64,000 nt of DNA from a virus (IMGVR_UViG_3300021960_000065:2565-66564), one strand, 5' to 3'. Shown: positions 19,711-52,445, counted from the stretch's first letter. Made by a program: numbers and translations. Notes: generated by a model from the letters alone, not told the origin.

Positions 19711-20877
19711 TCAACTCAAGTCACGGATTTTACCGCTTGCCTTGAAGAAAGCACAAATCAATTCGCCCATCGTGTGAAACATTCCCATTTGCCCCAAGCG
19801 GTTGATACCGAATGGGTCGCCCGTTTCAATACCGCTTTCGTGGTAAAGGGTAGGCTTGGCGGTGGTGAACCACAGGTAGTCGGTGTCAAGGAAATAGAGG
19901 CGAGAAGAACCGCCCGTTTCCTTGTGAACATCTTTGGAGGGGATGATTGGGACACCGTTGTAGGTAGCGACCATGAAGCCACCCTGAATGCCCGGAACAC
20001 CCTTCACACCATTGACACCCGGCACGACACGCTTCATTTCAACGAAGCGTTGTTGAGGTTGTAGCAATTGCTGAATGGTTTCAAGAGTGTCGTAGCCCGT
20101 AAGGATGACCTTTGGCTGACCGCCCGCTTCCCACACTTGTCGGAACATTCCGTCAAGGATGTTCAGGGACAATGCACGCTCGGCACTTGATGCACCTGCA
20201 TCCACTTGAGCGTCATACCACTGAGCCGACCCTGCGGTTTGACCTGCACGAGAGAGCGAATAGATGTTGTGATCCGATTCAGCACTCACATCGGTGAAGG
20301 TGTTGAAGTCCTCCACATAGGAATTGGAGGTGATACGGTCAAGGGACTCAAAGTCGTTTCCTGCGGTGGTATCAATGTCACTCAACAGCATTTGGTTGAT
20401 GTGTTCAGTGTGGTGCTTTGCCATTTCCATTTTGATGACAGCACGAGCATCACCAAGACCGTCATCCTTGTCAGCAAGGAACATGGCGGTTTCGGTGAGG
20501 TCAAAGGTGTGAGCCACAGTCTTTGGCTTCGTGCTAACCTCAGCGAAGGTTGGCTTGGTGGTTTCAGGGAGGGTTGCGTTCTCAGGAACACCGCCACCCT
20601 TCGTGAAGTCGGGCTTGGCGGTGGTGACACGCCATCCACTCTTCTCCCAAGGCTTCTTGGGGAGAATGCTGAAAGCGTTGAATTCTTGGTTCAATTGCGA
20701 CCAAACCTTGCGACCAAAAATCGCTTGGTAAGTGCCACTCGTTGAAGAGGCGAGAGGTGAATCGGCTTTCAAGAGGTCAGTGCCACTGTAAGCCCATGCG
20801 TTCTGTCCTGCACCTGCACCGTAATACAGGCGTTCCATGTCCTCAATTGTTCGGATATATCCTTGACTTCCACTCAT
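19711..20877 (-). CDS. Major capsid protein (HK97 fold)
   Basis: 388 aa after the protease; FSILPKKPW, F+SLDR, YNGVPIIPS, YFLDTD motifs; GGTGA RBS. Confidence 0.9.
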   Translation of the reverse strand: MSGSQGYIRTIEDMERLYYGAGAGQNAWAYSGTDLLKADSPLASSTSGTYQAIFGRKVWSQLNQEFNAFSILPKKPWEKSGWRVTTAKPDFTKGGGVPENATLPETTKPTFAEVSTKPKTVAHTFDLTETAMFLADKDDGLGDARAVIKMEMAKHHTEHINQMLLSDIDTTAGNDFESLDRITSNSYVEDFNTFTDVSAESDHNIYSLSRAGQTAGSAQWYDAQVDAGASSAERALSLNILDGMFRQVWEAGGQPKVILTGYDTLETIQQLLQPQQRFVEMKRVVPGVNGVKGVPGIQGGFMVATYNGVPIIPSKDVHKETGGSSRLYFLDTDYLWFTTAKPTLYHESGIETGDPFGINRLGQMGMFHTMGELICAFFKASGKIRDLS

Positions 20878-20888
20878 TTTCAATCACC

Positions 20889-22217
20889 TCAAAGGTTTCC
20901 TCCAACCATTGAACGATGGCCCAATTCTTCCAAAGCACGCCATGCGTCAAGTCCATTTCCAAGTGCTGCGTATTCGTCATGCGTCGGCACTCGCACAGCG
21001 TTCTCGGAAGGCACAGGAACGGCTGACTTTTGGATTTCAGCGTTCTCAGTGCGGAGGGAGTCAATTTCAGCCTTCAGGAAGGCGATTTGGGAAGTGAAGT
21101 CTTTGGACTTGTGGATTTCCAATGCTCGTTGCGTTTCGGCTTCGTAGCGTTCATTCCACTCCTTCTCCACAAGGGACTTCACAGCCTCTTCGTCACGGAT
21201 TGAGGCGTAGGTTCGGTAGCCACGCTCAAGGGACTCAGGGGAGAGGTCAGCACCCTTGATGACATTTCCACCCTTTGATTGTGGGTGTTGCATCTGTGGT
21301 GCGTTCTTGATGACATACTTGTTGGCACGAGCGTTGCCGAGAGCAGGTCGTGGGGCGAGGGTTGCATCCTCACCACTGCCGTAAAGGTCGCCTTGTCCTC
21401 GGTGGTTGAAACCATGTTCACCATCAACGCCCACCATGTAGGCTTTGCCGAGTCCAAAGTGACCTCGTAGGCCATCCAAATCAACACCTTGCTCGTGTGC
21501 GAATTTTTCAAGGGTGTCAATGTAGGCGACAGCCGATTGCTCGGCTTTGCCCAAGTCATCCTTTTCGCACTCGCACTCGGCCATGTTGCATGAACCGCAC
21601 ACCTTTGCGCTCTTTTCCATTTCTAAACCCTTGCTGATTCGGGCAAGGGCATCTCTTACTTCGGTCAAAACATTCGTTTCTTCTGTCATTTCGTTCACAT
21701 CCATTTTCAATAGGGTGTAGCGGGATTCAGGATTGATTCCCTTTTTGCACAGGGTAATTTCGTGCAATTCCATGTCCGTAATTTCCCTGTGGCTTCCATG
21801 TTCGGGAGTCGTCTTGTTCACTCGGAACAAGGCTTGTCCACCAATGGAGAATGCTCGCAATTCGCCGTTGCGAATTTGCTTTTGGACTTCACGGGCTTTT
21901 TCAATGTCGTTTCGGATTTGGCAAACCACGAATAGCCCGTGATCATCCACTTCGGATTTCCAAACCCGCCCTTCACTATCAGTGTAGGAAGGAAGCACTT
22001 GACCCACTTGAATACCGCTGTGGGCCAATTGAACATTACGATAGGATGGGTTGTCCATAAAGCCCCCAAATGCCTTCTTCAATGCACTAACGGGGATTCT
22101 GTCACCCTGCTTGTCCACCATATCAACGGAGGCATACCCGGCAATAACCAAGTCCCCATTGGAGTCGGACTTCAGGATGAAGTCTTGTCCAACAGCCGAC
22201 CATGTTGCCGTGTTCAT
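20889..22217 (-). CDS. Prohead protease fused to scaffold domain
   Basis: IAGYASVDMVDKQGD, LAHS (His), AFSIGG (Ser), LHEITLC..GIN; helical C-terminal half. Confidence 0.9.
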   Translation of the reverse strand: MNTATWSAVGQDFILKSDSNGDLVIAGYASVDMVDKQGDRIPVSALKKAFGGFMDNPSYRNVQLAHSGIQVGQVLPSYTDSEGRVWKSEVDDHGLFVVCQIRNDIEKAREVQKQIRNGELRAFSIGGQALFRVNKTTPEHGSHREITDMELHEITLCKKGINPESRYTLLKMDVNEMTEETNVLTEVRDALARISKGLEMEKSAKVCGSCNMAECECEKDDLGKAEQSAVAYIDTLEKFAHEQGVDLDGLRGHFGLGKAYMVGVDGEHGFNHRGQGDLYGSGEDATLAPRPALGNARANKYVIKNAPQMQHPQSKGGNVIKGADLSPESLERGYRTYASIRDEEAVKSLVEKEWNERYEAETQRALEIHKSKDFTSQIAFLKAEIDSLRTENAEIQKSAVPVPSENAVRVPTHDEYAALGNGLDAWRALEELGHRSMVGGNL

Positions 22218-27937: not shown

Positions 27938-29731
27938 TCATAAACCTAACCTCCGATTGAGGTTATTTAATTTTTCATCAACATTGGATTCGGCAGGGCT
28001 TCTTTCGCTTCGCCTGTCTTGAACGGTTTGGCTCATGTGATGCTCTCCGTCAAAGCGATTCACACGGTCAGGGCTTTTGCCACCACTTCTCCGTGAATGC
28101 AAATTCAATTGTGATTTGCCTCGTGTTCTCAATGGTCGCAAATCCGTTCCATGAGTGGTTGTCATAGCCGAAGGTATGGGGCGAGAGCCGTGAATGTCAT
28201 CCTCAACATTCCGTTTCCAAATTTCATCCATCGTTGGTGGTAAAATGTGGGATTTAGCCATCGCACCCCCACCTTGTTGCGGTGGCGCACCTTCGGGCGG
28301 TGGCCCTGCTTGTGGTGGTGGCGGTGGTGCTTCTTTGTAATCAAAGTGAAGGTAGCCATTGTCATCACGCAATTGAGCATCATAGCCCGCTTGCTTCATT
28401 TGCATCATGTTGCGGATAGCCATTTCATCCCTTCGCATAGCCATGATTTCATCCTCTTCCTCATGTGGATTGAGAGTGATTTCCCACTCGCTAATTTGAA
28501 GGGCTTCAAGCAATAGAGGGAATAGACGATTGTTATACAGGTTTTGACTTGAAGCCAAAGCCCGATTGGTGACGACAATTTGCATTCCTTCGTTGTTCAA
28601 GCCACCGCCCGACACATCATTCATAAACACATTTGACACACCGTAAAACGATGAAATGCGTTGGCGAATGTCGTCTTTGATCGGGATATATTGTAATTCT
28701 TCAAGGGTGTCCATCATACGCACATATTCAAGACCCCCACGACCCGTTTCTGTTTCAACACCAACCGTAGGAATGTATTGTGGGTCACGCTCAAGGTGTT
28801 CCTGAATGTTGCGTGCGGTTCGCTCAACGGTTTCAAGGTTGGATGATTTAATCACCATCACACCTCTCGGCATCCGCCTCTTTTGGTAAGCCGAATACAC
28901 ATAATTGTCCATCGCAATCAGCGTGTTCACTTGTCGCCATAGTGTAGCGACGGGCGAGCGACCATACAATTTTGAGGGCGACCATTTGCTCAAATGAATG
29001 ACTTCGCCTTCGGTATAGACCTGTCCTGCACCAACACCTGCGAGGTTCATGTAATGAATGGGAACAACGGGCAATCCTGTTTTCGGACATTTCTCATCCT
29101 TGTCGCTTGTGCGGAATGACCTGTCCAACAGGCTCGTGTATTGCTTGCCCCCACGCACACCACGCTTATCGGCAACGATACGCATGAAAATGGGGTCAGC
29201 ACGAGTGATTTCTTTGATGCGGTAAAATTGTGGTTGTCCTGTGTTGGGATCCACGAAATACTCCTTCGTGAGAATCAGGTATGCGTCATCAACAATGTTC
29301 AAGTCCATTTCCACTTCACGAAGGACTTCAAGGAATGATTGTGTCATTCGGTTGTCCTCGTGGAGAAGGGCGTTTGCATATTCCAATTGTCCCTTATCCG
29401 CCTCACGAACCTCGCCTCCGCACATACGGCACGAGTCCACTGCCTTGTTGTATTCTTCATCGCACTCTCGGCACTTCTTCACAAATTTTGGTTTCCATGT
29501 CCAACCTTTGCGGAATGTTTCAGTCGCCAAGTGATTGAGAATTGAACGCAACACCAAACACTCGTATGAGGCAGCGTATAGTGCGGGGATGGTAATACCC
29601 TGCAACAATGGAGGCTCTTGGACACCTGTGGTGAACAATGGCATCTGTGGCGTGGGTGTTTCATGGCGTTCCATGTCCATGCCAAGAGCCGAAAACAAAC
29701 GGTCAATGCGTTTCTTTTCACTCATGGGCAA
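27938..29731 (-). CDS. Portal protein with zinc-ribbon insertion
   Basis: DLNIVDDAYL, EVIH..KWSPSKLYGRSPV, RISSFYGVSN; position between TerL and protease. Confidence 0.88.
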   Translation of the reverse strand: MPMSEKKRIDRLFSALGMDMERHETPTPQMPLFTTGVQEPPLLQGITIPALYAASYECLVLRSILNHLATETFRKGWTWKPKFVKKCRECDEEYNKAVDSCRMCGGEVREADKGQLEYANALLHEDNRMTQSFLEVLREVEMDLNIVDDAYLILTKEYFVDPNTGQPQFYRIKEITRADPIFMRIVADKRGVRGGKQYTSLLDRSFRTSDKDEKCPKTGLPVVPIHYMNLAGVGAGQVYTEGEVIHLSKWSPSKLYGRSPVATLWRQVNTLIAMDNYVYSAYQKRRMPRGVMVIKSSNLETVERTARNIQEHLERDPQYIPTVGVETETGRGGLEYVRMMDTLEELQYIPIKDDIRQRISSFYGVSNVFMNDVSGGGLNNEGMQIVVTNRALASSQNLYNNRLFPLLLEALQISEWEITLNPHEEEDEIMAMRRDEMAIRNMMQMKQAGYDAQLRDDNGYLHFDYKEAPPPPPQAGPPPEGAPPQQGGGAMAKSHILPPTMDEIWKRNVEDDIHGSRPIPSAMTTTHGTDLRPLRTRGKSQLNLHSRRSGGKSPDRVNRFDGEHHMSQTVQDRRSERSPAESNVDEKLNNLNRRLGL

Positions 29732-30965
29732 TCACCTCAAACGCTCGCTTCAATTTGTCCTCCGACATTCCCCACGCCTTGAGCAATTCAACCTGCTCTT
29801 TCTTTGAAGCGTAGGTGTAGGTCAAAAGACGCATAGCCGTTTCATCGCCTTCATAGGATTTGAGCAAAACCGCAGCATTCCTTTTGTTTTCATTCAAATG
29901 TGGATAGGCTTTACGGATTGCCTTTTGCACTGAAAGGTCGCCTTCAATGACGAATTGGCGATCTTCCCACATAATGTTGCCCACGCCAAGACTCTCCTTT
30001 AACACAACGGTAAATTCATCACCTCTTTTGCTCGTGAACGGCAAAAACAAACGAGGCGAACCTGATGGCGTAATTTCCAAGTGTCCACCAACATCCCAAA
30101 GGTTAGCGATGAAATTGTCAGCATTTTTGAGCATAATTTTGGGGGACTGTTTGCCGTAAAGCAGTGCCTTTGAGTCATTATTCCTCGCTTTGCCAACCAC
30201 TTCAATATCAAATAAAAAGCCGTGTGATTTGATGAGCATGGCAATTTCAGCCGAAGTCGCTGTGCTATGTGATGCGAGCATTTGTGAAGTCATCCCACCA
30301 TAATCGTCTATGTTTTGTGATGCTTTGCTCAATATGTCATATTCTCGTCGGCTCAAACGACTTTCAGCGTTGAGTCGGTTAGACCATTTTTTCCATATTG
30401 CTTCTCGTGTTTCTTCGTCAGCGTTTCGTGACGAAACAACCGCTTTACGAAACAGGAATTCCAAGCGTTCACCATGCGTAGCGAGCATATTGAAATCGTT
30501 ATCACGGACATCAATGTGTCCCCAATCGCTGTCACGCCACCATGAAAATTCTTTGAGCAAAGCATCCTGTTCCTGCTTTAACAAATTGATTAGGCGAGGG
30601 ATAATGGCTTCTTCACCATTTTCCTGCATGATTTTAATTATTTGATCGCCACTCGCGCCAAAATTGTCCATGAAATAACTGCGTGTTATTCCCACCATTG
30701 GCGTTGCCGTTGTTCCCGGTTGGTCGGTTGGCATCCCTTCATTTTCGTTGCCCGAAAATCCTTGAATCTGTGAACCCGCTGTTGCTTGAGGTGGCATTTC
30801 CTGCTGTTGCTCTTGTTGAGTGCTTTTGGCTTCCTCTTGTTTTGCTTCTTCCAATTCTTTGGTTTTTTCAGCAACCTTCTCCGAAGCCATTTGCTGATTG
30901 TTTGGCAACAATTTGAGGATGGCACTATCCATCGTATTCAGCATGGGATTCCATTCAATTTTCAT
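29718..30965 (-). CDS. Protein with degenerate LAGLIDADG-like C-terminal domain
   Basis: FIANLWDVGGHLEIT..GSPRL, LKESLGVGNI, AIRKAYPHL..KRNAAVLL. Confidence 0.5.
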   Translation of the reverse strand: MKIEWNPMLNTMDSAILKLLPNNQQMASEKVAEKTKELEEAKQEEAKSTQQEQQQEMPPQATAGSQIQGFSGNENEGMPTDQPGTTATPMVGITRSYFMDNFGASGDQIIKIMQENGEEAIIPRLINLLKQEQDALLKEFSWWRDSDWGHIDVRDNDFNMLATHGERLEFLFRKAVVSSRNADEETREAIWKKWSNRLNAESRLSRREYDILSKASQNIDDYGGMTSQMLASHSTATSAEIAMLIKSHGFLFDIEVVGKARNNDSKALLYGKQSPKIMLKNADNFIANLWDVGGHLEITPSGSPRLFLPFTSKRGDEFTVVLKESLGVGNIMWEDRQFVIEGDLSVQKAIRKAYPHLNENKRNAAVLLKSYEGDETAMRLLTYTYASKKEQVELLKAWGMSEDKLKRAFEVIAHE

Positions 30966-32398
30966 GCGTCAGCCCACCCTATTCTCTTTGTCCAAGCCTC
31001 GCTGTCAAGAATCACGATGCTGTCTTTATACTCTTTCGTAGCCTGAACCGCAAGGGCGAGGGCAATAACTGTATCGTCGTGTTTTCCAAGCGACTCCATT
31101 TTACCATTCGGCAACATGGTGAACATGGACAATTCGTTTATCAAAATGTCCATCAATCTTCGTGTAGCCCCATCCTCTTTGTAGGGCAAAATCAAATGCC
31201 GTTGTTCAAAGTGCAATTGAAGAGTGTGAATGACCGCTTCTTTTTTCATACGGCTCATGGTGAATGGTTTGATGGGCAAATCGCTGATTTCTTTCAACAC
31301 TTGATGAAATGCCTGTGCGAAATTGTTGGTTTCCAATTCCACAATGACGGGATTGTAGCGAGTGTTCAATTCTATGATTTTGTCAATTTGGTCGTTGAAT
31401 GACATTCCTTTTTCACGGTGCATCCAAACCACACGCTTGTGTCGGTTTTCATCCACCGCAATCACGACCATGCAGGTGTAGTCGGCTGAACGATCAGGGC
31501 TGATTGCAGGATCCCAACCAATGTAATAATTCACATCCTCTCGGTTGGGGTCGGCATACGGGTCAAATTCAAACGCATATTCCAAGTCCTTACATGGCTC
31601 AACCATATCTTCGGGAAATAGACTCGCATCGCTCGCAATTGGGCGACACAGGTATTCACGGGTAAATGCAATTGAAGTCATTTCGCTTCTTCGCCCTTGT
31701 AGTGCCTCAAGACTCCAACGCTCAGGCCACAGCGGTTCACCCGTCTGCTCACTAATGGCGGGGTATTCACGGACTTGATACCCACTCAAACCCTTCAATT
31801 CTTGGTAAAGGTCGGTGTAGGAGAACGGAGTGCCGACAATGCACAATTGTGCTGAGTGGTGAAGCACAGGCAACAAAGCGGTGTAAAACCACGAAGCGAT
31901 GTGTGCTAATTGTGTTGATGCTTCACTTGACAGAATATCGTCAAGCACCACGATGTCAGGGTGCGCGCCACGCACAGCCTTACCGACTGACATAGCCGAT
32001 ATGGATGATTTGTTTGTCATTTTGAATTTCTGTTTCGCCCATCCTCGTGCGGGTTTCAAGTGCGAAAGCACAGGATTTGACTCAATCAATTCATTCATTT
32101 TCCCCATGTGTTCAATTGACTGATGCTGACTGTGTGAAAAGAATAGCACTTCTGTGCCGGGATTGTAGGCCATTTTCCATAGCAAATAGACTCGGTAAAA
32201 CACCGATTTGCCGTGATCACGAGAAGCGATTACACAGGTTTTGTTGTGTTCCTCCGACATGGCAAACCATTCTTCGTGAAAGTCGGCTAATTGATAGCCT
32301 TCTTCTTTGCCACAAATGTCCTCAAAAAAGAATTTGAAATCCCTTCGGCCCATTTCCCAATCCACTTTATTGGCGAGGTCAAGGACACCTGCTGACAC
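30962..32398 (-). CDS. terL: Terminase large subunit
   Basis: Walker A ASRDHGKS, Walker B VVLDD, VGTP, nuclease IGWDPA...ADYT, HDDTVIALALA. Confidence 0.95.
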   Translation of the reverse strand: MSAGVLDLANKVDWEMGRRDFKFFFEDICGKEEGYQLADFHEEWFAMSEEHNKTCVIASRDHGKSVFYRVYLLWKMAYNPGTEVLFFSHSQHQSIEHMGKMNELIESNPVLSHLKPARGWAKQKFKMTNKSSISAMSVGKAVRGAHPDIVVLDDILSSEASTQLAHIASWFYTALLPVLHHSAQLCIVGTPFSYTDLYQELKGLSGYQVREYPAISEQTGEPLWPERWSLEALQGRRSEMTSIAFTREYLCRPIASDASLFPEDMVEPCKDLEYAFEFDPYADPNREDVNYYIGWDPAISPDRSADYTCMVVIAVDENRHKRVVWMHREKGMSFNDQIDKIIELNTRYNPVIVELETNNFAQAFHQVLKEISDLPIKPFTMSRMKKEAVIHTLQLHFEQRHLILPYKEDGATRRLMDILINELSMFTMLPNGKMESLGKHDDTVIALALAVQATKEYKDSIVILDSEAWTKRIGWADA

Positions 32399-38744: not shown

Positions 38745-39539
38745 TCACCTCCAATGTGGGTGGACTGTGTTGCGTGTTCCGCACTTAGGACAGCGTTTTT
38801 GTTCCCACTCTTGAGGGGTTTGAATGTAGCCACAACCTCGGCATTGGAGGTCGTTATCAGTCCAACCTTCATCCTCGCCTTCTTCAAGGTCATCCCAAGA
38901 CTTTTTGTTAATGGTTTTACTACAAAACGGGCAATCTCCCCTGCCTTCTGTCAATTTGTCATAATCAAGAGGCTCAATTTCAAAGTCACGCTCTTGGTAG
39001 GATTCGTCTGTGTTTGGCCCATAGCGATCAAAATCCGTATAGGTTTCCATCATTACATCGCCAATGTCTTGACCGCAAACGGGACAATCGCCACCCGAAG
39101 TGTGCAAATTTTCCATCCCTTCAATGTCCAAGTCTTTGATGCGTTCCATGTAGCCACATTCACCGCAAGCAAAATTGAGTCGCCCATTTTCTTCTTGCAT
39201 AATCAAACCTTCTCCACGACACTCAGGGCATTGGTGCGAGGATATTGCTCTTGGTTCATTCTTGACAATTCCCCAACCCACAACAAACGCCTTTGCCATC
39301 CCTTGATGGCTCGCGCAATACTGCCCCTCGCTATCAACACGAGCCATGCACATTGAATTAGCACAGGTTGGATAGGTCAAGAAGCGTTTCTTTTCAAAGG
39401 ATTTCTTCAAATCCTTGTCTTTGTAGCATGGGCATTTTGGGTCACTCTTTGAGCAATTCATTACGCCTTTTTTCATGCACGCACATGGGCTTGATTTTGT
39501 AGCCCCACAACAACATGAATCACGCTTCAACAATTCCAC
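38745..39539 (-). CDS. Cys-rich multi-zinc-ribbon protein with internal tag (probable GTG start)
   Basis: Many CxxC pairs; AFVVGWGIVK|N. Confidence 0.65.
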   Translation of the reverse strand: MELLKRDSCCCGATKSSPCACMKKGVMNCSKSDPKCPCYKDKDLKKSFEKKRFLTYPTCANSMCMARVDSEGQYCASHQGMAKAFVVGWGIVKNEPRAISSHQCPECRGEGLIMQEENGRLNFACGECGYMERIKDLDIEGMENLHTSGGDCPVCGQDIGDVMMETYTDFDRYGPNTDESYQERDFEIEPLDYDKLTEGRGDCPFCSKTINKKSWDDLEEGEDEGWTDNDLQCRGCGYIQTPQEWEQKRCPKCGTRNTVHPHWR

Positions 39540-40135
39540 CTCTTCAATGCAGCACCCTTTGGTGTCAATTTGCCACCTTTGCTCGTTGGCCCTTTTACCC
39601 CGCCCATCCGAGCGCAAAACGACTTTCGCCTCTTGGCTTTCTTTGAACCGGGTTTGAGTGTTGATGGTTTTTCAGTGACGGGGGGTTTGAGGTTTGCACC
39701 CTCTTCACGCTTGAATTTTGCACGCCCTTTTGCATTCAACCCACCTTCACGACTGTGGCGATTTGGGTTGTAGCCATGAAACGGTTTGTCGGACTTTTTG
39801 CTCAACAACGCTTTCGCCAATGTGTCACAGGTTTCGCAATTACACGCTGACTTTTTTGTGTCACTTGGCACACAATTTGGGACTTTTTTGCCCCGCTTGG
39901 TTTTCATGCCCACTTGTTCGTAGCCATCCCAACACGGATCTTCTTTGACAACCCCTCTTGGGCCTGTCCAATATCCACTTGCGATTCTTGCGAATTCGCA
40001 TTGATTACAATAGCCGGGTATTACCACCTTTCCCCGATAGCGAGGCCGTGTAGGATCTATGGGGTTTCCACAATTGTCGCATGGTTCATCCATTTTGACA
40101 ATTTGCCACACCTTATTGAAAGTGGATGACATCAT
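39527..40135 (-). CDS. Tagged protein with CWxGY module and basic RRKSFCARM domain
   Basis: TFNKVWQIVK|M; PCWDGYEQVGMK..GKKVPNCVP; GGLNAKGR...RRKSFCARM...ALKRWNC, which I recall from T4-like marine phage proteins. Confidence 0.7.
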   Translation of the reverse strand: MMSSTFNKVWQIVKMDEPCDNCGNPIDPTRPRYRGKVVIPGYCNQCEFARIASGYWTGPRGVVKEDPCWDGYEQVGMKTKRGKKVPNCVPSDTKKSACNCETCDTLAKALLSKKSDKPFHGYNPNRHSREGGLNAKGRAKFKREEGANLKPPVTEKPSTLKPGSKKAKRRKSFCARMGGVKGPTSKGGKLTPKGAALKRWNC

Positions 40136-40554
40136 CGTTGCCCCCTAAATTTGTTGTAGGTTGCCGCCACTTTCAACGGCAACGAGGAATACCACTTGGC
40201 TAATTTTGGCGTAGCCGAATAGGAACGCACCATAGGCTTGAAGGCTTCATCAATTGCTTTAAGCAATTCATCGGCTTCTTTTCGTGAAACCATCGGCAAA
40301 GGTTGTGCTAAATCGCTGAAAGCCATACGAATAACAACAATTGCCCCGTATGCTTCCTCCGCATATTTCGTGTGCGTTTCCATCCCAAAAGCATCCAAAC
40401 CCTTCGCCCACAGTCGCACCGTTTCCTCCAATGCGTCACAAAGCGTGGAGGTTTGTTCTATGGACAAGATGTTGCTTGGGGTTTCCAAAAGCGACCCATA
40501 TTCCGTGTTTTTCAACATGAGTGCGGGAATGGTTTGGTAGTCTTTGTCACTCAT
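40132..40554 (-). CDS. Hypothetical helical protein
   Basis: Coupled ORF with GGTGA RBS. Confidence 0.6.
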   Translation of the reverse strand: MSDKDYQTIPALMLKNTEYGSLLETPSNILSIEQTSTLCDALEETVRLWAKGLDAFGMETHTKYAEEAYGAIVVIRMAFSDLAQPLPMVSRKEADELLKAIDEAFKPMVRSYSATPKLAKWYSSLPLKVAATYNKFRGQR

Positions 40555-41257
40555 CACCAAGCACCCCCGCATCAGCCAAAGCCTTTCGCATCATTCGCCA
40601 TTCGTCAGGCGACTTCTCGCTAAAGTGAGCCTGTATAACGGTCAGCACATTAACCTGTTGTGAATTTTCAATGTTCTCGGCTGTGCTTAGGTGTTTTGCT
40701 AAGTCGCCAAGTGTGTCACGGACTTCACGGTGCAATTTCACCGCAGCATCCAATCCTTTGTAGTCAAGCATTCCCGTTTCTTCCCGTTCCGCTTGCATCA
40801 AATTGAGGTGATCGTTGAACAACCCATTCAAGCGTTGAAGGTTGCTATCGGTTTGACGAATGGCATCGGCTACACTCGTGATAGCCGTTGGCAACGCTTC
40901 AATTGCCGCCTGTCGCTGAATAACAGGCTGAGTGTGATTTTCCATGTGGTGTGATAAAGCACTTGAAGAAACCTCCAAATCCTCAGCCATTTGGTCTATG
41001 TCAATCAAACGCTCAAGAATGGCGACTTCAATGTTGGCTCGCTCAGGGTGTGTGCAAAGCGGGCAATCGCTATTGCTGTTGTTGTGATATTCACCCGAAT
41101 GTCGCCTCATGTGCCTGTGAGCCGTTCCTTCCGCCCAATCCTGATTACGATCCATGTCTTGAACATCAATCAGCCCAATGCGGATATTCTGTTCCATCGT
41201 GTCACGACTTGGGTGCAAACAGAAGGGGCAATTCCGCCTTGTCTGCCGACCCACCAT
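40547..41257 (-). CDS. Putative terminase small subunit (two CxxCxHP-HTH-HxxxH repeats plus coiled coil)
   Basis: CPFCLHPSR...HMRRH and CPLCTHPER...HMENH; first gene of the block leading to terL. Confidence 0.5.
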   Translation of the reverse strand: MVGRQTRRNCPFCLHPSRDTMEQNIRIGLIDVQDMDRNQDWAEGTAHRHMRRHSGEYHNNSNSDCPLCTHPERANIEVAILERLIDIDQMAEDLEVSSSALSHHMENHTQPVIQRQAAIEALPTAITSVADAIRQTDSNLQRLNGLFNDHLNLMQAEREETGMLDYKGLDAAVKLHREVRDTLGDLAKHLSTAENIENSQQVNVLTVIQAHFSEKSPDEWRMMRKALADAGVLGDE

Positions 41258-41276
41258 GTTTTATGCGAAGGCATTC

Positions 41277-41484
41277 TCATTTATTTGGTTGCCGATGATG
41301 ATAGCAATATCCATTATGGATGGCCTCTTTGCGACACGGCTCACCCGCCCTTGTCACACCTTTACAGCGACCACTATCAAGGAATTCCTTTTTGACAACG
41401 ACCTTTTCTTGTAGTGGTTGGGGTTTTAGAGGCTGTTCCACTTTTGGAGGTTGCCATTGACTCCTGTTCGCCTCAATACCGAAA
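41277..41484 (-). CDS. Small CxxxTxxGxxC...CxxH zinc-finger ORF, start unclear
   Basis: RCKGVTRAGEPCRKEAIHNGYCYHH; only a GTG at 41441 or a +1 shift from the upstream gene could start it. Confidence 0.55.
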
Positions 41485-41721
41485 GGAAGAATACTGACGC
41501 ACAGCCACCGTGAAAGTGAATAACATTCCAAAGAAAAAGCCCATGATTTGACTCGTGGACATTTCCGGGCCTTTCCACATCATAATTAAAAATCCCATAA
41601 GGATAAATGAAATGATGAAGATCATGGTTGCACTTTCAACGAGCATTTTTTGCGGGCTTAACAGATTGACACCTGCACTTGCCCAATTGATTTCAGCCTC
41701 TTTGTTTCGTTCTTCCGCCAT
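41473..41721 (-). CDS. Small membrane protein (2 TM)
   Basis: Two hydrophobic stretches; GAGGTG RBS. Confidence 0.75.
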   Translation of the reverse strand: MAEERNKEAEINWASAGVNLLSPQKMLVESATMIFIISFILMGFLIMMWKGPEMSTSQIMGFFFGMLFTFTVAVRQYSSFRY

Positions 41722-41731
41722 TTGTCACACC

Positions 41732-42391
41732 TCACAGAACCGCAGCACCGCCTAATGCAGCACCCGTTTTCATCATATTGCCCATTCCGCCTTGTTGTTG
41801 CACTTGATTACCAAGCATACCACCGAGAAGGCTTCCAAAGAAGCCGGGTTGATTTTGTTGCATCATACCCCCACCTTGCTGATGAGCCATGAGGAACATT
41901 TGCATTTGCTGTTGGTTTTGGTTGAGAATTTGTTGTGCTTGGGATTGAACCCTTTGGAGTGTCAAGGCCAAATTTTCACTTGAAAGGGTCTGCAATTGAG
42001 AAGGCATCGTGGCTGTGTCCAATTTGATAGCATCGCCTTCTTGTTTGAAATTAACACCTGAAAAGAAGTCTTTCATGCACATGAGCATGATTTCACCCAT
42101 CAATTCCATAATCATCGGCAAATTTTGCGACACAATGAACATGGACATTGGGTCATACATTTGAAGCATTTTGGAGGTTGCCACCACAGGGTCGTTTGCC
42201 GCCTGTTGCATCATTGGATTTTGGGATTGCATCATCATCATAGTTGGATCCATGCCATAGCCACCCATGCCCATGCCCATACCCATGTTGCCCATGCCCA
42301 TGTTGCCCATGCCCATCATGTTGGGTTGTCCCATTTGCCCACCACCAAAAGTGGTTGTGCTGTCCGTTTTATTTCCTCCAAACAATCCCAT
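41732..42391 (-). CDS. Met/Gly/Gln-rich protein with glycine-zipper-like C-terminus
   Basis: MGLFGG start, GNMGM repeats, GFFGSLLGGMLG...GAALGGAAVL. Confidence 0.75.
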   Translation of the reverse strand: MGLFGGNKTDSTTTFGGGQMGQPNMMGMGNMGMGNMGMGMGMGGYGMDPTMMMMQSQNPMMQQAANDPVVATSKMLQMYDPMSMFIVSQNLPMIMELMGEIMLMCMKDFFSGVNFKQEGDAIKLDTATMPSQLQTLSSENLALTLQRVQSQAQQILNQNQQQMQMFLMAHQQGGGMMQQNQPGFFGSLLGGMLGNQVQQQGGMGNMMKTGAALGGAAVL

Positions 42392-42399
42392 GTTATCAC

Positions 42400-43305
42400 C
42401 TATTGCGCGGCCATTTGTTCCTGCATCATCGTGGTATTCACTTGTTGTGGTGCGATGCCCACCATTTGCTGTTGTTGAGCCATTTGTTCCATTTGTAAGG
42501 CTCGCAAATCAAAAGTCACCGTCACCAAATCCGCTACACCTGAAACGGGGTTAGGGTGTTGGGTTAAAGTCACTCCCTTTGAATGCTGTGCGTCCTGTTG
42601 AATCATGTTGAAAAATTCAGCGTATTTCAACAACGACTCAGGGGTTGAACGGTTTTGTGCCTTAGACGAACCCGAAAAACCCGGCACACGCATGAAGCGT
42701 GTTCCCTTTGATACCTTTGAGAATCCTTCTTGTTCAAGGGTGTGTTCTTCAATCATGCACCGAAGGGTGTGATAAATGTGCAAATGTGCAGGGCAAAGTG
42801 TGCTTGACATTTCATCCCCGTGATCGCCATGCGTGCGTGCGTGAGGCTTTCGTGCCTGTTGAGTTTCCTCATCAAACCAATAAATGTCAGCCAACGATAA
42901 TCCTGTTCGCTCATCGCTAATGTGGTGATAGGCGTTATCGCCCTCAAGGAAACGCCTTACATCCACACCACAACAGGCACACTCGTGTGCTGCATTGTAG
43001 CGATACACCTTGAACAAACCCAAATTGTAATTTGGTGGTCGGAGAGCCTTGCGAAGCATTTTGATGTTTTTCTTTCGTGCCTTTACGGGGTTCTTGGGGT
43101 TGGTAATCAATTTGATTTCAACCGTAGGGATGACAATTTCTTGATCCATACCTGCGCCCTGTGACCCTGACGAAGCCATTTCAGCCCGTTGCTGTGCCTT
43201 GAGGAATTCAAAAGCGATACCCGTTTGGGATGAAAGGGTTCTCAAATCGGCATCCGATAACCCGTTAAGCGACATTCCGCCACGAGCGAATGGGTTCATA
43301 CGCAT
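42400..43305 (-). CDS. Putative zinc-binding protein (probable start MRMNPF)
   Basis: ECACCG...LCPAH; GGAGG RBS before 43305. Confidence 0.65.
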   Translation of the reverse strand: MRMNPFARGGMSLNGLSDADLRTLSSQTGIAFEFLKAQQRAEMASSGSQGAGMDQEIVIPTVEIKLITNPKNPVKARKKNIKMLRKALRPPNYNLGLFKVYRYNAAHECACCGVDVRRFLEGDNAYHHISDERTGLSLADIYWFDEETQQARKPHARTHGDHGDEMSSTLCPAHLHIYHTLRCMIEEHTLEQEGFSKVSKGTRFMRVPGFSGSSKAQNRSTPESLLKYAEFFNMIQQDAQHSKGVTLTQHPNPVSGVADLVTVTFDLRALQMEQMAQQQQMVGIAPQQVNTTMMQEQMAAQ

Positions 43306-43322
43306 AGACTCCCTCCGAACCA

Positions 43323-43336
43323 TGTGAGTCCTAACA
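43323..43336. promoter_or_regulatory. Palindromic operator-like site TGTGAG-TC-CTAACA
   Basis: Same consensus at 62223 and 63055. Confidence 0.45.
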
Positions 43337-43358
43337 TATTCAAAATGGTTTCCCCCCC

Positions 43359-44087
43359 TCACAACATTTGAACCGTGTCATAAATGGCACGCTCAACATT
43401 CAATCCATATTGGGCTGACATAGCCTCAACATTCGTGGCAATTCCCGCTTTACGCAAACGCCTCATTTCCTCTTGAAAAGGCAACACCAAAGGGTGTTGT
43501 CGCTTCATGCCTTCATCCCACATCCTTTGAGAATCAACATCCCACCACAAATCCATTTTGTTCACCAACAAACACACGACCTTTGGTTTGAAAATTTTCG
43601 CCTTTTTCTTCAAATAACGATTGAAAGACTTTGGGTATTTCGTGTTCGTCATAATGTCCACGAGGTATTTCAATCCTCCAACGGCTTCGCCCAACAGGTA
43701 TTGGGATTGCAGGATTCGGTGATCAACAACATAGAAAACAATGCTGATATTTCGCCCAACCATGTCCTCAGCCCACATATTCCAATAACGAGCCTGTCCT
43801 CCGAAGTCAGCGGTGGATATGGGGATTTTTTCACCATTCCATCGCACCTGTTTCTTTGTTGTGTGAGGCATGGTGAATTGTCCATGCTTCATGGCATGTG
43901 TTGTGCGGAGTGCTAACGGTATTGGCTCAATGTCACCCGGCACAGTCAGGTATTGGTCTAAGGTTGTTTTACCCGACATAGACGGGCCATAAACACCGAA
44001 TTTGTGCGGTTTGAGGATTCTGTAAATGTATGACCCCAATTGTGCTGAACCAAGCAACAAATGCCCAACAAACATCCATGACGACAT
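43359..44087 (-). CDS. Ras-superfamily small GTPase, Arf/Sar1-like
   Basis: G1 GPSMSGKT, G2 T in LRTTH, G3 DFGGQ..YW..W, G4 NKMD, G5 SAQ; hydrophobic N-terminal helix. Confidence 0.85.
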   Translation of the reverse strand: MSSWMFVGHLLLGSAQLGSYIYRILKPHKFGVYGPSMSGKTTLDQYLTVPGDIEPIPLALRTTHAMKHGQFTMPHTTKKQVRWNGEKIPISTADFGGQARYWNMWAEDMVGRNISIVFYVVDHRILQSQYLLGEAVGGLKYLVDIMTNTKYPKSFNRYLKKKAKIFKPKVVCLLVNKMDLWWDVDSQRMWDEGMKRQHPLVLPFQEEMRRLRKAGIATNVEAMSAQYGLNVERAIYDTVQML

Positions 44088-44092
44088 TTAAA

Positions 44093-44317
44093 TCACGCAC
44101 CAAACATCCATTCCCATACGGATGTTGGTGTGATTTGCCAAAACGCATCAAGTCCGACCATTACAAGAAACGAAAGCGAAGCACCAACCAAGAAGGCGAG
44201 AATTGCTTTGATTGTCCAAGTCATGCGCTCAAGCCTTCGCTCATAGGCGTTTTCAGCGAGAATACTCGCCATCGCTTCCGCCTGTCTTTCTTGTTGTGTG
44301 TTGAACGGCCAAGCCAT
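44093..44317 (-). CDS. Small membrane protein (1 TM)
   Basis: Hydrophobic segment AILAFLVGASLSFLVMVGL. Confidence 0.7.
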   Translation of the reverse strand: MAWPFNTQQERQAEAMASILAENAYERRLERMTWTIKAILAFLVGASLSFLVMVGLDAFWQITPTSVWEWMFGA

Positions 44318-44330
44318 GATAATGCCTCAG

Positions 44331-44777
44331 TTATTGCTGTTCAGGTTCTTTTTTGGACTCTTCGGTTTGAACGGGAACGGTAAATGTGGTTGATTGTTGT
44401 TGTTGTCCGTAATTGCCGTTGTAAAATTCTTGGTTGCTTGAATACTTTCGCATTCTTCGTGCTTGAAGGCGAGCCTGTTGCGTTTGCCACTTGTCATAAC
44501 GGGATTCTTGAGCGAATTCCGCACGCATAGCGAGGCTATCACGAAGCCCACCCACATGAAACAGCACCATTGACAAACATAGGAAACCGAAAGAAATCAA
44601 ACCGAATTGAAGGCCCAATTCACCCGCACTCGCATCAGGCAAATACCACCCCAAGTGTGATACTCCAACAGCAGTGCCGACCAACAATGATTGCCACAGC
44701 AACATGGCGATCAAGTTAATGTCAATTCGGTTTTCATCCATCGCCCAAGGCGGAACAGGCGGTTTCATTTCTTGCAT
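44331..44777 (-). CDS. Membrane protein (2 TM) with polar C-terminal tail
   Basis: Two hydrophobic segments; GGAGG RBS. Confidence 0.75.
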   Translation of the reverse strand: MQEMKPPVPPWAMDENRIDINLIAMLLWQSLLVGTAVGVSHLGWYLPDASAGELGLQFGLISFGFLCLSMVLFHVGGLRDSLAMRAEFAQESRYDKWQTQQARLQARRMRKYSSNQEFYNGNYGQQQQSTTFTVPVQTEESKKEPEQQ

Positions 44778-44779
44778 CG

Positions 44780-44920
44780 TTAATCATCCTCCTTCTTTTG
44801 TTTGTTGAAATACTCGCTAATGATGTGATTGATGAACGAGGATTTTGACTCACGCCCCCTCGCAGCCTCCATTTTAGCAAATAAATCATCGCTCATCACG
44901 ACTGACACATGACGGCTCAT
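44780..44920 (-). CDS. Ribbon-helix-helix (CopG/Arc-like) regulator, 46 aa (below ORF-track cutoff)
   Basis: MSRHVSVVMSDDLFAKMEAARGRESKSSFINHIISEYF. Confidence 0.75.
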   Translation of the reverse strand: MSRHVSVVMSDDLFAKMEAARGRESKSSFINHIISEYFNKQKKEDD

Positions 44921-44927
44921 GTGTGCT

Positions 44928-44952
44928 TGTCAAGAATGTCAAGCATATCAAG
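44928..44952. promoter_or_regulatory. Three direct repeats T(G/A)TCAAG at 9-bp period; candidate RHH operator overlapping the promoter
   Basis: TGTCAAG-AA-TGTCAAG-CA-TATCAAG immediately upstream of the RHH ATG. Confidence 0.55.
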
Positions 44953-44965
44953 GTTGTGATTATTG

Positions 44966-46039
44966 TCAGCATTTTAGCACAGCCCACCCATGCTCAAAAG
45001 GTGTTTCTGTTTCCTGCGATAAAGTGAAGTCAAATATGTCCGTTTGTTTTTTGTTGTTAGGCACAAAGCGCGAGTGTCCAAATCGTGATAATGTTTCCAA
45101 TGGGTCAAAGCCCTCAATGTTGGTGGCAACCATTTCGGGCATATCACCACGACTTTCAGCCTTTGCGCCCGATTTGTCGGGGCGAATCATTATTTGAGTG
45201 TTTAAGCCCAAGTCAGCATATTTTGACGCAGCATCAGCGGAGTCAAAGGCAACAATTGGCTGACCCTCATTGATGCGTTCATTCAAGGCTGAAAGGTATC
45301 GTTGTATATCGTAATTTTCGGAATATGAAGAAGGTTGATTTTCATAGGGCGGGTCAGAAGCGAGCAAATTGCTTAGGTTAATGTCCCATTCGTTGAGTGC
45401 ATCCGCAGCATCACCTTGACGCAATTCCACATTTTCAAAAATAGGTTGATATTCAAGAAAATTGACATCCTCGCCTCTTTTGAAAGGTGTCAAAGTCCCC
45501 GAAGGTATGTTGTTGTAGCCCGTTGGCATCCGCACCATTCCTTGAAACCCTGTTTTTTTGTTCATGTAATACATTTGAGCCATTTCATATTCTTCTATGG
45601 GTGTCAAAGGAATTCCTTGTTTGATTTTATGCAGGTAATAATTCAAAGAACCCTTTTTGGGCAAATTGCCTTGTTGAATGGCACGCAGGGTTGCACCACG
45701 AACATCCTCACGCCATTTGGCAGGTGTCATGTCACTATCGTATTGGCTAAAAGGAATTGTCAAACCACCTTCGGTATTTTTCAAATGGCGCAGCATATTG
45801 ACGAGTCCTGCGTCATATTCGTTCATTCGCACTTGACCCGTTGGCATCAAACCCTGAACAAATCCACCGGGGCCACTCGCAGGATCGTCTAACCCTGTTG
45901 TTCCTGCCCTTTGTTCAGCCACACGCATGAGAGTGTTGTAGTGTGGTTGGTTTTTATTGCCGGGATGTTTGATGAATGAGGATATGCCTTTTCCTCGCAA
46001 CCAATTCGGATCTCTCCGAAATGCGTTGATGTCCACCAT
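44966..46039 (-). CDS. Dam-like (D12 class) DNA adenine methyltransferase, divergent, with C-terminal tag
   Basis: IKHPGNK, DPASGPGG, MNEYDAGLVN, YMNKKTGFQG, ASDPPY; ends in PFEHGWAVLKC. Confidence 0.7.
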   Translation of the reverse strand: MVDINAFRRDPNWLRGKGISSFIKHPGNKNQPHYNTLMRVAEQRAGTTGLDDPASGPGGFVQGLMPTGQVRMNEYDAGLVNMLRHLKNTEGGLTIPFSQYDSDMTPAKWREDVRGATLRAIQQGNLPKKGSLNYYLHKIKQGIPLTPIEEYEMAQMYYMNKKTGFQGMVRMPTGYNNIPSGTLTPFKRGEDVNFLEYQPIFENVELRQGDAADALNEWDINLSNLLASDPPYENQPSSYSENYDIQRYLSALNERINEGQPIVAFDSADAASKYADLGLNTQIMIRPDKSGAKAESRGDMPEMVATNIEGFDPLETLSRFGHSRFVPNNKKQTDIFDFTLSQETETPFEHGWAVLKC

Positions 46040-50782: not shown

Positions 50783-50843
50783 GTGTTTTGCACGCCTCTT
50801 CAATTGAAAATCCTTTTTGTTAAGGTTGTCAACCATCACAGGG

Positions 50844-50851
50844 TTAATATG
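50844..50851 (+). promoter_or_regulatory. TATA-like element TTAATATG upstream of the thermosome gene
   Basis: About 25-30 nt before ATG 50874 in a divergent intergenic region. Confidence 0.45.
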
Positions 50852-50873
50852 CTTGGTTTGTGTGGCGGTGAAC

Positions 50874-52445
50874 ATGATGCCCAACGGTCAAGCACCCGTA
50901 TTCATTTTGCGTGAAGGAACAGAAAGAAGTCATGGTCGTGTAGCCCAATCCAACAATATCGCTGCGGCACGAGCCGTTGCCGATGCTGTGCGTTCAACGC
51001 TTGGGCCGAAGGGCATGGACAAAATGCTCGTTGATGAGGGCGGTGATGTCATCATCACAAACGATGGGGCTACAATCCTTCGTGAAATGGACATTGAACA
51101 CCCCGCAGCGAAGATGATTATTGAAGTGTCAAAGACTCAAGAGCAGGAGTGTTATGACGGCACTACAACGGCAGTTATCCTCTCAGGTGAATTGTTGAAG
51201 AAGTCGGAGGAATTGATTTCACAAAACATCCACCCAACCACCATTTGCGACACATTCCGTAAAGTCGGAACGGAATTGAATGCGATGATTGACGACTTGG
51301 CGTTTGACGGTGATGCTGATGCTCTTTTGAGCGTGGCTCAAACCTCGCTCACGGGCAAATCCGCAGGTTCAATCAAGGAATTCTTGGGTCGCATTTGCGT
51401 TGATGCTGTCGCACGCCTCTCAGCGAGTGGTCGTGTGGACTTGAATGAAATCATGGTCGTCAAGGCTGTCGGTGGCGAGGCTATTGACAGTCGCTTGGTT
51501 TCATCAGTGGTTCTTGACAAAGAACGCTGTCACCCCAATATGCCCATTTCAGTCACCTCACCGAAGGTTTTGCTTTACAACAATTCCCTGATGGTGCAAA
51601 CCACTGAAATGGATGCCAACATCCAAATCACCGACCCCAATCAAATCACCGCATTCCTTGAGCAAGAAGAGGAATTCCTTCGCAACCTCGTTAATGACAT
51701 TGTGTCAAGCGGTGCAAAGGTGGTCGTTTGCCAAAAGGAAATTGATGATTTGGCAAAGCATTACCTTGCCAAAGCGGGTGTTCTCGCTGTTGAAAAAGTC
51801 CCCAAGTCCGACATTGAGGCTTTGTCACGAACCACAGGGGCTTCAATCCTGAATAACCTTGAGGATGTGCGGGCAGGAGAGGATGTTTTGGGCGAATGTG
51901 GCTTGGTTGAGGAAAAGAAAATCGGTGAATTGCCGATGGTTTTCTTTGAAGATCCTGCAAACGCTGTGCCTGTCACTCTCATCCTTCGTGGTGGGACTGT
52001 TCCTTTCGTTGAGGAAATTGAGCGTGCCTTTGACGATGCCGTTGGTGTCGTGTCCGTTGCTCACGAGGATGGCAAAGTGCTAACGGGTGGCGGGTCTGTT
52101 TTCGCTGCGCTTTCGCACAAATTGCACGACTTGGCTCAAACCCAACATGGTCGTGAGCGTATGGCGACTGAGGCGTTTGCCGAAGCGTTGCTTGTTGTTC
52201 CTCGCACGCTCGTGGAGAACGCAGGGCTTGACCCCGTTGATGAAATGATGACACTACGCACCCACCACGCATCAAACGACAACACCGCATACGGTGTTAA
52301 TGTCTTTGAGGGTGGTTTGGCGGATATGGCTGAGGCAGGAGTCTTTGAGCCAAAGCGTGTGGTTGCTCAAGCAATCAAGTCAGCGGTTGAAACCGCTATT
52401 ATGATTCTCCGCATTGACGATGTGATTTCATCAAAGAAGGCTTAG
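50874..52445 (+). CDS. ths: Thermosome subunit (group II chaperonin)
   Basis: [40 protein letters not shown]; helical protrusion present. Confidence 0.97.

Follow-up and report, generated by a model that had tools for sequence, protein, structure and literature searches.

We found that a viral DNA stretch of 64,000 nucleotides (IMGVR_UViG_3300021960_000065:2565-66564, analysed at its full length and called the window below) carries a conserved core cassette of magroviruses, built of eight tightly packed open reading frames (ORFs) that run on the minus strand from position 44920 to 41277. The window makes up 64 kb of a 66.5-kb IMG/VR virus record with an estimated completeness of 63%, and the virus is a magrovirus, a tailed virus of Marine Group II/Poseidoniales archaea. 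Judged by its motifs, the protein at the centre of the cassette is a real but very divergent small GTPase to which the Arf type is nearest. We propose, with a probability of about 0.35, that the encoded proteins form a GTP-switched membrane complex which would remodel or rupture the membrane at a late stage to allow egress. In the surface ocean magroviruses rank among the most abundant viruses, and their hosts are not culturable; a compact set of six to eight genes makes the question of egress testable without the host. The cassette and its immediate flanks are as follows.

44921-44968, minus strand: leader resembling a promoter/operator, with five pentamers in a 9-nt register (putative function)
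44780-44920, minus strand: ribbon-helix-helix (RHH)-like protein of 46 aa, putative DNA-binding regulator and first gene (by pattern only)
44331-44777, minus strand: protein of 148 aa with two transmembrane (TM) segments (by hydropathy)
44093-44317, minus strand: protein of 74 aa with one TM segment (by hydropathy), ending 5 nt ahead of the GTPase start
43359-44087, minus strand: divergent Arf-like small GTPase of 242 aa (by motifs G1-G5)
42400-43305, minus strand: Cys/His protein of 301 aa, counted from the ATG used in relatives; the ORF extends to 43362
41732-42391, minus strand: Met/Gly/Gln-rich protein of 219 aa (by composition)
41473-41721, minus strand: protein of 82 aa with two TM segments (by hydropathy)
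41277-41531, minus strand: DUF5763 zinc finger (by Pfam), start codon uncertain, overlapping the end of the 82-aa gene
40547-41257, minus strand: p236, a protein of 236 aa directly after the cassette (by alignment)

All eight ORFs that an earlier note on this DNA had described as tightly packed were found, with gaps of 2-13 nt and one of 53 nt (in succession 2, 13, 5, 53, 8 and 10 nt), followed by an overlap. The 53-nt gap precedes the Cys/His gene and holds for a start at the ATG at 43305, the one used in relatives.

Related loci fell into three groups. The first comprises 15 loci, 13 of them IMG/VR loci reached through the GTPase (45-99% identical) and two from a genome collection. The complete cassette was found in the same order in 15/15 (GTPase 43-99% identical), and where the GTPase is 45-69% identical the membrane proteins are 58-69% identical. 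The genes upstream of these cassettes (methyltransferase, 722-aa and 504-aa proteins) vary between loci. The zinc-finger gene, which BLAST had missed in relatives, was recognised by eye as a CxxxTxxGxxC...CxxH ORF in all nine first-group loci inspected.

A profile of the Cys/His protein, searched against 1.84 billion representatives, returned 65 proteins, mostly fragments. Among them were full-length relatives of 25-34% identity, one of which (30% identical) led to the second group, 31 loci at about 30-37% identity. The order there is 2-TM, 1-TM, GTPase, Cys/His, Met/Gln-rich, 2-TM and p236, the same as in the first group. Searches with hidden Markov models (HMMs) detected the Cys/His protein, the Met/Gln-rich protein and p236 in 31/31 loci each. 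The 82-aa type of 2-TM protein was found in 30/31, as was the GTPase, whose sole miss is cut by a contig end; the 148-aa type was found in 27/31, with three of the four misses at contig ends. For the 1-TM protein an HMM match was obtained in 1/31 loci, and an ORF of 78-99 aa and like build stands before the GTPase in six of seven loci. The RHH gene is present in 15/15 loci of the first group and 0/31 of the second. In the second group a gene of 65-90 aa lies between the GTPase and the Cys/His gene (L018:6776-6997, L028:5456-5653, L037:6783-7004), and the product of L018:6776-6997 is of MazE/AbrB type (Pfam 25.8 bits against a cut-off of 24.7). On this comparison of predicted genes the small regulator is swapped between the groups and the rest of the cassette retained.

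The third group, 12 loci, was reached with an alignment of four more distant Cys/His proteins; one such protein by itself, P0177, gave none. The GTPase and the Cys/His protein were found in 12/12 of these loci, and the 1-TM protein, by HMM, in 9/12. The two loci that were read contain a 2-TM plus coiled-coil protein that aligns with the 148-aa protein. p236 was not detected in any of the 12.

Since all of these loci had been found through cassette genes, the search was repeated with an independent anchor, the large terminase TerL. This gave 63 loci, 21 of them with a full 10-kb upstream flank. In 21/21 of these p236 lies 7.7-9.9 kb upstream, and the 82-aa gene was present in 20/21, falling beyond the flank in the last one; 12 of the 21 contigs were new. 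The gene order is far beyond chance and was kept in every relative examined. The earlier note had let its proposal stand or fall with co-occurrence in relatives, and the order proved to be fixed in at least three divergent groups and in the TerL-anchored loci. Because of this fixed-order co-occurrence, the TerL anchor included, a membrane-associated, GTPase-centred module heading the packaging and morphogenesis genes is well supported.

The same conservation bears on superinfection exclusion, which had been offered before as a second possible function. A cassette for exclusion, or for some other membrane defence or counter-defence, might well look like this one, exclusion genes being typically small membrane proteins headed by a small regulator (general knowledge). 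However, order and content are strictly conserved over three divergent groups while the genes just upstream vary, and PADLOC returned nothing for the eight cassette proteins. Exclusion fits a strictly conserved core cassette poorly, and for that reason we regard it as very unlikely.

We next consider the GTPase. It carries G1 (GPSxxGKT), the switch-I Thr, G3 (DxxGQ), G4 (NKMD) and G5 (SAQ), the full set of a Ras-superfamily small GTPase, and these motifs are conserved in 21 and 19 aligned sequences. In the second group G5 has A-T, not S-A, and in a few GTPases of the first group D replaces the switch-II Q. The switch II sequence DxGGQxxx[RW]N[LM]W is present. The first 25 residues are hydrophobic-amphipathic and stay below the TM threshold, with a hydrophobic moment of 0.45 over residues 9-26. 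When the GTPase profile was compared with the PDB, the sole matches were the Asgard structures 8oun_A (E 3.4e-6, over two short stretches) and 8oum_A, both from the preprint 'Arf family GTPases are present in Asgard archaea' (bioRxiv 10.1101/2024.02.28.582541, consulted in part). Searched singly against Pfam, the 21 family members matched Arf (15 members), Ras (11), Roc (10), MMR_HSR1 (9) and Gtr1_RagA (5). The gathering threshold of Arf (PF00025) was reached by 0/21, with a best E of 7e-4, and the GTPase of the window itself matched only Gtr1_RagA (21 bits against a cut-off of 22), Ras and Roc.

Like Arf and ArfR, the viral GTPase consists of one Ras-superfamily domain that carries every G motif; its N-terminal helix may seek the membrane, and its switch II may be of their type. 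It differs from Arf in the P-loop context, which is GPSxxGKTT in the virus and GLDxAGKTT in Arf, in a long conserved insert between G1 and switch I, and in being virus-encoded. We also compared the arrangement with Sar1-Sec12 and SR-beta-SR-alpha, in which an Arf-like GTPase works with a single-pass membrane partner. In the cassette, too, an Arf-like GTPase would lie at the membrane alongside a single-pass protein, although the viral 1-TM and 2-TM proteins showed no relation in sequence or fold to those partners.

The family is numerous in marine data, with 583 clusters at 90% identity (E <= 0.001). In a protein search with the GTPase alignment, the best 120 of the 583 clusters held the viral family only and no cellular relatives. 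The viral GTPase profile found a match in 1/151 genomes of the host order, namely on the viral contig of a single-cell genome. We know of no small GTPase of a tailed prokaryotic virus in the literature. The cassette is not described in the literature that we searched, and the word 'GTPase' is absent from the main texts of the magrovirus and archaeal-virus papers that were searched, whose supplementary tables may list the gene. The cassette is also relevant to how Arf-like membrane GTPases evolved outside eukaryotes and Asgard archaea.

A cellular system with several of these traits is ArvABC. Vesicle formation in Haloferax needs ArvA, an Arf-like GTPase whose N-terminal helix is amphipathic; ArvB (DUF2073) and ArvC, a Zn-ribbon protein (DUF2072), are encoded together with it (PMC10927574, consulted in part). 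We aligned ArvABC (OapABC) operons from ten genomes of the host phylum. Between the P-loop and switch I, hhalign aligned the viral protein with ArvA at a probability of 95% (E 2e-8, 43 columns), and the two have in common the P-loop context GIYGPxxxGKTTL and the switch I sequence IPxExR. With the viral profile ArvA scored 13-19 bits, against 29.8 for Asgard ArfR at equal database size. Beyond switch I the two proteins differ, with DTPG/NKID/SAL in ArvA and DxGGQ/NKMD/SAQ in the virus. The Cys/His protein is unrelated to both partners (hhalign probability 0.8% against ArvC and 0.1% against ArvB), and no cassette protein matched OapB (PF09846) or OapC (PF09845) in Pfam at E <= 0.1. Membership of the cassette in ArvABC was rejected on these grounds: the similarity to ArvA ends after switch I, and the partners are unrelated.

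What remains is a likeness of plan, in that a small GTPase with an amphipathic helix is followed by small partners in one operon, one of them zinc-binding. The ArvABC operons that were read encode no integral membrane proteins, whereas the viral block has three. Membrane vesiculation is the proven function of ArvABC in a euryarchaeon (PMC10927574). By analogy, the cassette may work like ArvABC without being a member.

A stronger form of the analogy is that the virus supplies vesiculation or membrane shaping of the ArvABC or Arf/Sar1 kind, and not a lysis device. Host membrane would then be budded or reshaped, for instance into vesicles or so as to alter the cell surface. ArvA, with ArvB and ArvC, drives the formation of vesicles in Haloferax (PMC10927574), the helix, P-loop context and switch I are common to the viral GTPase and ArvA, and the host order has no detectable OapB or OapC. 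OapC was found in 58/121 sampled genomes of the host phylum and in 0/151 of the host order, where OapB also gave 0/151; as the genomes are sampled and often incomplete, this means not found rather than absent. The differences in G3-G5, the end of the similarity after switch I and the unrelated Cys/His protein speak against this function, and tailed virions have no envelope, so that the benefit of vesicles is unclear. We consider it distinctly unlikely.

The Cys/His protein is the most conserved of the block. In an alignment of 32 sequences, down to 24% identity, C171 is invariant and C109, H174 and H179 are nearly so (numbered from the ATG at 43305). The protein thus probably has a C-C-H-H metal site, as far as the pattern of conserved residues can tell. 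AlphaFold2 gave a model with a pLDDT (predicted local distance difference test) of 80.6 and a pTM (predicted template modelling score) of 0.54 from the 32 sequences, compared with a pLDDT of 42.5 from 11 close ones. Foldseek found no match to this fold in the PDB at E <= 0.001 (best 0.89) and one match in BFVD, an unnamed viral protein of 213 aa (E 5.8e-5). The ESM Atlas gave no usable match to either the Cys/His protein or the Met/Gln-rich core. We also tried the Cys/His protein as an ArfGAP, a family marked by a C4 zinc finger with an arginine finger. This was rejected, as there was no Pfam match and no PDB fold match, and only four Cys/His residues are conserved.

The Met/Gly/Gln-rich protein contains 38 M, 34 G and 30 Q in 219 residues and is built of a low-complexity N-terminus, a helical core and a Gly-rich C-terminal segment, with GxxxGxxxG near the end. 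The helical core is conserved between the first and second groups, and the second-group homologues are far poorer in Met. No match was found in Pfam, PHROGs, the PDB (0 profile matches) or the Atlas. FG-repeat or hydrogel behaviour, suggested by GLFG and GFFG motifs, was discarded because these motifs are not retained in the second-group homologues.

Met-rich segments of SRP54 and Sgt2 bind hydrophobic helices, and SR-beta, which belongs to the Arf-like GTPases, is anchored by its N-terminus. It is therefore conceivable that the cassette aids the insertion of membrane proteins, with an SR-beta-like anchored GTPase and a Met-rich protein that binds the clients. The 38 Met residues would suit this, and SRPRB was weakly matched by 3/21 GTPases. 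However, Met is much scarcer in the second-group homologues, a domain like that of the signal recognition particle (SRP) is missing, and the only obvious clients are the three small proteins of the cassette itself. This makes an insertion aid the most improbable of the functions considered.

Membrane segments were assigned by Kyte-Doolittle hydropathy (sliding window 19, threshold 1.6). There are two in the 148-aa protein, one in the 74-aa protein, and in the 82-aa protein one strong segment plus a weaker second that passes the threshold in relatives. Among the minus-strand ORFs of the window, the small membrane proteins found by hydropathy are those of the cassette (the 74-aa protein was assessed individually); beyond these, the same scan picked out a 525-aa ORF and, as a weak case, one of 133 aa. 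In the 148-aa protein the two TM helices are accompanied by a basic helical region and a variable tail, and against PDB profiles its best match had an E of 0.013, to a coiled-coil-like stretch. In the 74-aa protein the N-terminal helix is conserved and the C-terminal tail is rich in Trp, and F5, E14, N23 and E30 are invariant when the first and second groups are aligned. Neither the three membrane proteins nor p236 had a family or PDB match above threshold. For the 1-TM protein XhlA was tried and rejected (E 0.066, in 1/16 family members).

By the positive-inside rule, the GTPase with its helix is predicted to be cytoplasmic, and so are the basic helical tail of the 148-aa protein and the N-termini of the 74-aa protein (its conserved helix) and of the 82-aa protein. 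These elements are also the best conserved between groups, which suggests that a GTP-switched complex may assemble at the inner face of the membrane.

The gene labels of the earlier note held for the GTPase, the TM proteins, the Met/Gly/Gln-rich protein with its glycine-zipper-like GxxxGxxxG and the zinc finger; the RHH label is one of pattern, namely strand-helix-helix in 46 aa. The RHH-like protein had no Pfam match at E <= 0.1, and its best E against PDB profiles was 0.82. The zinc finger matched DUF5763 (PF19067) with an E of 1.4e-9 and 37.7 bits, above the cut-off of 26.3, and GvpO_arch_Nterm with an E of 1.3e-6, below the cut-off. In most relatives the zinc-finger ORF has no ATG, and those of L013 and L014 contain an Asp/Gly-rich DxDGDGDFD stretch resembling a calcium-binding loop. 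A programmed frameshift that would fuse the 82-aa protein to the zinc finger was rejected, since the relative frame differs in L013.

The gene directly after the cassette, p236 (40547-41257), had been taken for a small terminase. No match to this effect was found in Pfam, PHROGs or the PDB (best PDB E 0.026), and TerL lies about 8 kb further downstream. The analogy with lambdoid phages, in which lysis genes precede the terminase, is accordingly weak, because the neighbour is not supported as a small terminase. p236 contains two CxxC...HxxxH modules, each with a helix in between. An extended helical region comes next, ESPExW is conserved at the C-terminus, and the protein is as conserved as the cassette. 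Weak PADLOC matches to LmuB and PDC-S06 were set aside, as they look like coiled-coil matches.

p236 adjoins the cassette in every locus of the first group (15/15) and of the second (31/31), and the two are also linked in the 21/21 TerL-anchored loci. This raises the possibility that the cassette is a membrane-anchored platform for capsid assembly or genome packaging that works together with p236, its membrane proteins and GTPase holding the site of assembly or packaging in place at the membrane. The two CxxC...HxxxH modules and the helical half give p236 a DNA-binding look, the unit precedes packaging and head genes in both groups, and conservation like that of core genes suits a part in assembly. 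On the other side, p236 was not detected beside the cassette in the 12 third-group loci, it has no terminase or DNA-binding family match above threshold, and no tailed virus is known to us whose head assembly depends on a platform of this kind. We therefore hold such a platform to be unlikely.

A DUF6321 protein is encoded downstream of the first-group cassette (39527-40135) and upstream of the second-group cassette (L018:3233-3628, L028:2471-2839), and the copies of the two groups are about 70% identical over their C-terminal 100 residues. As the side on which DUF6321 lies differs between groups, the cassette and p236 move as a block relative to their neighbours.

We also examined how the cassette may be expressed. 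The spacer between the DPPY methyltransferase gene and the RHH-like gene is 45 nt long. Five pentamers (TGACA, TCACA, TGATA, TGACA, TGACA) start exactly 9 nt apart, from 44968 to 44932. The array occupies 44928-44968; its first pentamer includes the methyltransferase stop codon, and 7 nt separate the end of the last from the ATG. The third lies inside a TATA-like TTGATA about 25 nt before the ATG. Relatives keep the 9-nt register with variant pentamers and with TTGATA or TTCATA, whichever gene stands upstream. The 17-nt core of the leader occurs once in the window. TGACA-N4-TGACA with up to one mismatch occurs 26 times in the window against 8 expected, and 22 of the 26 are on the coding strand inside genes, so this excess is taken to be codon-related. 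The only TGACA array whose position is conserved is the one ahead of the first cassette gene, and it looks like an iterated operator overlapping a promoter.

No Shine-Dalgarno-like motif precedes the first gene, and GGAGG, GAGG or GGTG is found 5-10 nt before internal starts. Archaeal operons usually look like this, with a leaderless first gene and Shine-Dalgarno motifs at internal genes. The coding strand carries no T6 run from 38 to 50 kb, and the genes downstream of the cassette overlap. For these two reasons the cassette, predicted to be one transcription unit under a promoter ahead of the RHH-like gene, probably continues into the packaging and head genes. In one metatranscriptome library, which may contain DNA too, eight short contigs of 95-100% identity were found across 40915-45877; they attest to presence in an RNA library and nothing further, and stretches without contigs carry no information.

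From the genes and their motifs, the TM segments, the co-occurrence and the link to the host, we infer the following course of events. The switch to the GTP-bound form would insert the N-terminal helix of the GTPase, which resembles that of Arf, Sar1 and ArvA (for ArvA as described in PMC10927574), into the host cytoplasmic membrane. There the GTPase would join the three membrane proteins and the two soluble partners in one complex at the inner face of the membrane, in which the role of effector or regulator would fall to the Cys/His and Met/Gln-rich proteins. The complex would bend or breach the membrane, and the nucleotide state would set the timing. Its most likely purpose would be to let progeny out once infection is complete, in hosts that lack a murein wall and apparently also the ArvABC vesiculation genes. 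When the 1-TM protein (residues 1-36), the Cys/His protein and the GTPase with GTP were submitted to complex prediction, run without controls, the ipSAE values were 0.02 and 0.00 against a mark of 0.32, which counts neither for nor against the complex.

Several points favour egress over other tasks. The virus is lytic and the cassette is one of its core units, with the look of a late one, and the small membrane proteins of the window are those of the cassette, plus the weak 133-aa ORF. Marine Group II/Poseidoniales hosts have no murein wall, and egress genes of archaeal tailed viruses are unknown, which also argues for this function. A review calls the egress players of head-tailed archaeal viruses 'still completely uncharacterized' (PMC10791045, consulted in part). 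In agreement with the earlier note, no holin or endolysin was seen among the 30 proteins of the window scanned against Pfam and the 20 scanned against PHROGs (10 of them outside the Pfam set), a result that covers about half of the ORFs. Like phage lysis cassettes (holin, endolysin, spanin) and PVAP, the pyramid protein of Sulfolobus viruses (PMC10791045), the viral cassette has clustered small membrane proteins in a late unit of a lytic virus; it differs from them in having no endolysin or family match, and in encoding a GTPase and two large soluble orphans.

Several observations weigh against egress. Cassette proteins had no holin, lysin, spanin or pore-former match in Pfam, PHROGs or NCBIfam. 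Holins are notoriously variable, whereas the membrane proteins of the cassette are well conserved. The cassette stands at the head of the late genes and not at their end, so that the timing would have to be set after translation. When 50,697 phage records were searched by tblastn for the GTPase, the Cys/His protein and p236, no match came up; the cassette is therefore no general egress system of archaeal tailed viruses, provided that the collection includes cultured haloarchaeal ones. The evidence for transcription from the metatranscriptome library is weak. It is more doubtful than the egress role as such that the cassette is a new kind of lysis or release device of a large group of archaeal tailed viruses, in which a viral Arf-like GTPase would time and drive the joining of the small membrane proteins and two orphan partners into a membrane-breaching assembly, in a host lineage apparently without such machinery.

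The assignment to the magroviruses follows from the head genes, the family-B DNA polymerase (PolB) in relatives, a Poseidoniales contig and the published description of these viruses. Magroviruses are described as having genomes of about 100 kb, a halovirus-like head module, their own replication genes and a chaperonin (PMC5434244, consulted in part). In agreement with this we found an HK97-type head module, relatives of about 100 kb, PolB, a chaperonin and a link to Poseidoniales, an assignment by gene content rather than by a tree. Related records measure 86-108 kb, and three of five tested encode PolB, including one that is 91% complete. The cassette was also found, by the GTPase profile, on a 106,262-base contig of an uncultured Poseidoniales single-cell genome. 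Nearly all genes of the window are on the minus strand. The features assigned outside the cassette are the following.

19711-20883: major capsid protein (PHROGs/Pfam)
20889-22217: prohead protease (PHROGs/Pfam)
27938-29731: portal (PHROGs/Pfam)
30962-32398: TerL, the large terminase (PHROGs/Pfam), about 8 kb downstream of p236
50817-52445, plus strand: Cpn60/TCP-1 chaperonin (Pfam E 7.5e-163), the sole long plus-strand gene in that part

A chaperonin (L134:3500-5053, E 1.1e-134) is also encoded 1.2 kb upstream of the cassette in a third-group locus. In one case, L016, the cassette is on an 8,227-base contig binned in a metagenome-assembled genome (MAG) of Parvibaculum sp. (genome G007), and this genome contains a cassette GTPase of each group, two in all (E 7.6e-121 and 3.6e-66). 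Mis-binning of viral contigs is the most likely explanation, rather than a bacterial host.

Another part of the window is marked by a short peptide, AFxxAW. The peptide was found in 0/8 cassette proteins, as had been noted before. Between 52431 and 62979, a near-identical N-terminal AFxxAW peptide (commonly MTAFDTAW..K) is present in 9 of the 14 ORFs listed, two further ORFs have the variant P[FE]xx[GV]W, and three have neither pattern. The methyltransferase encoded at 44966-46039 has a C-terminal HGWAVLKC that is similar to the AFxxAW-type peptide.

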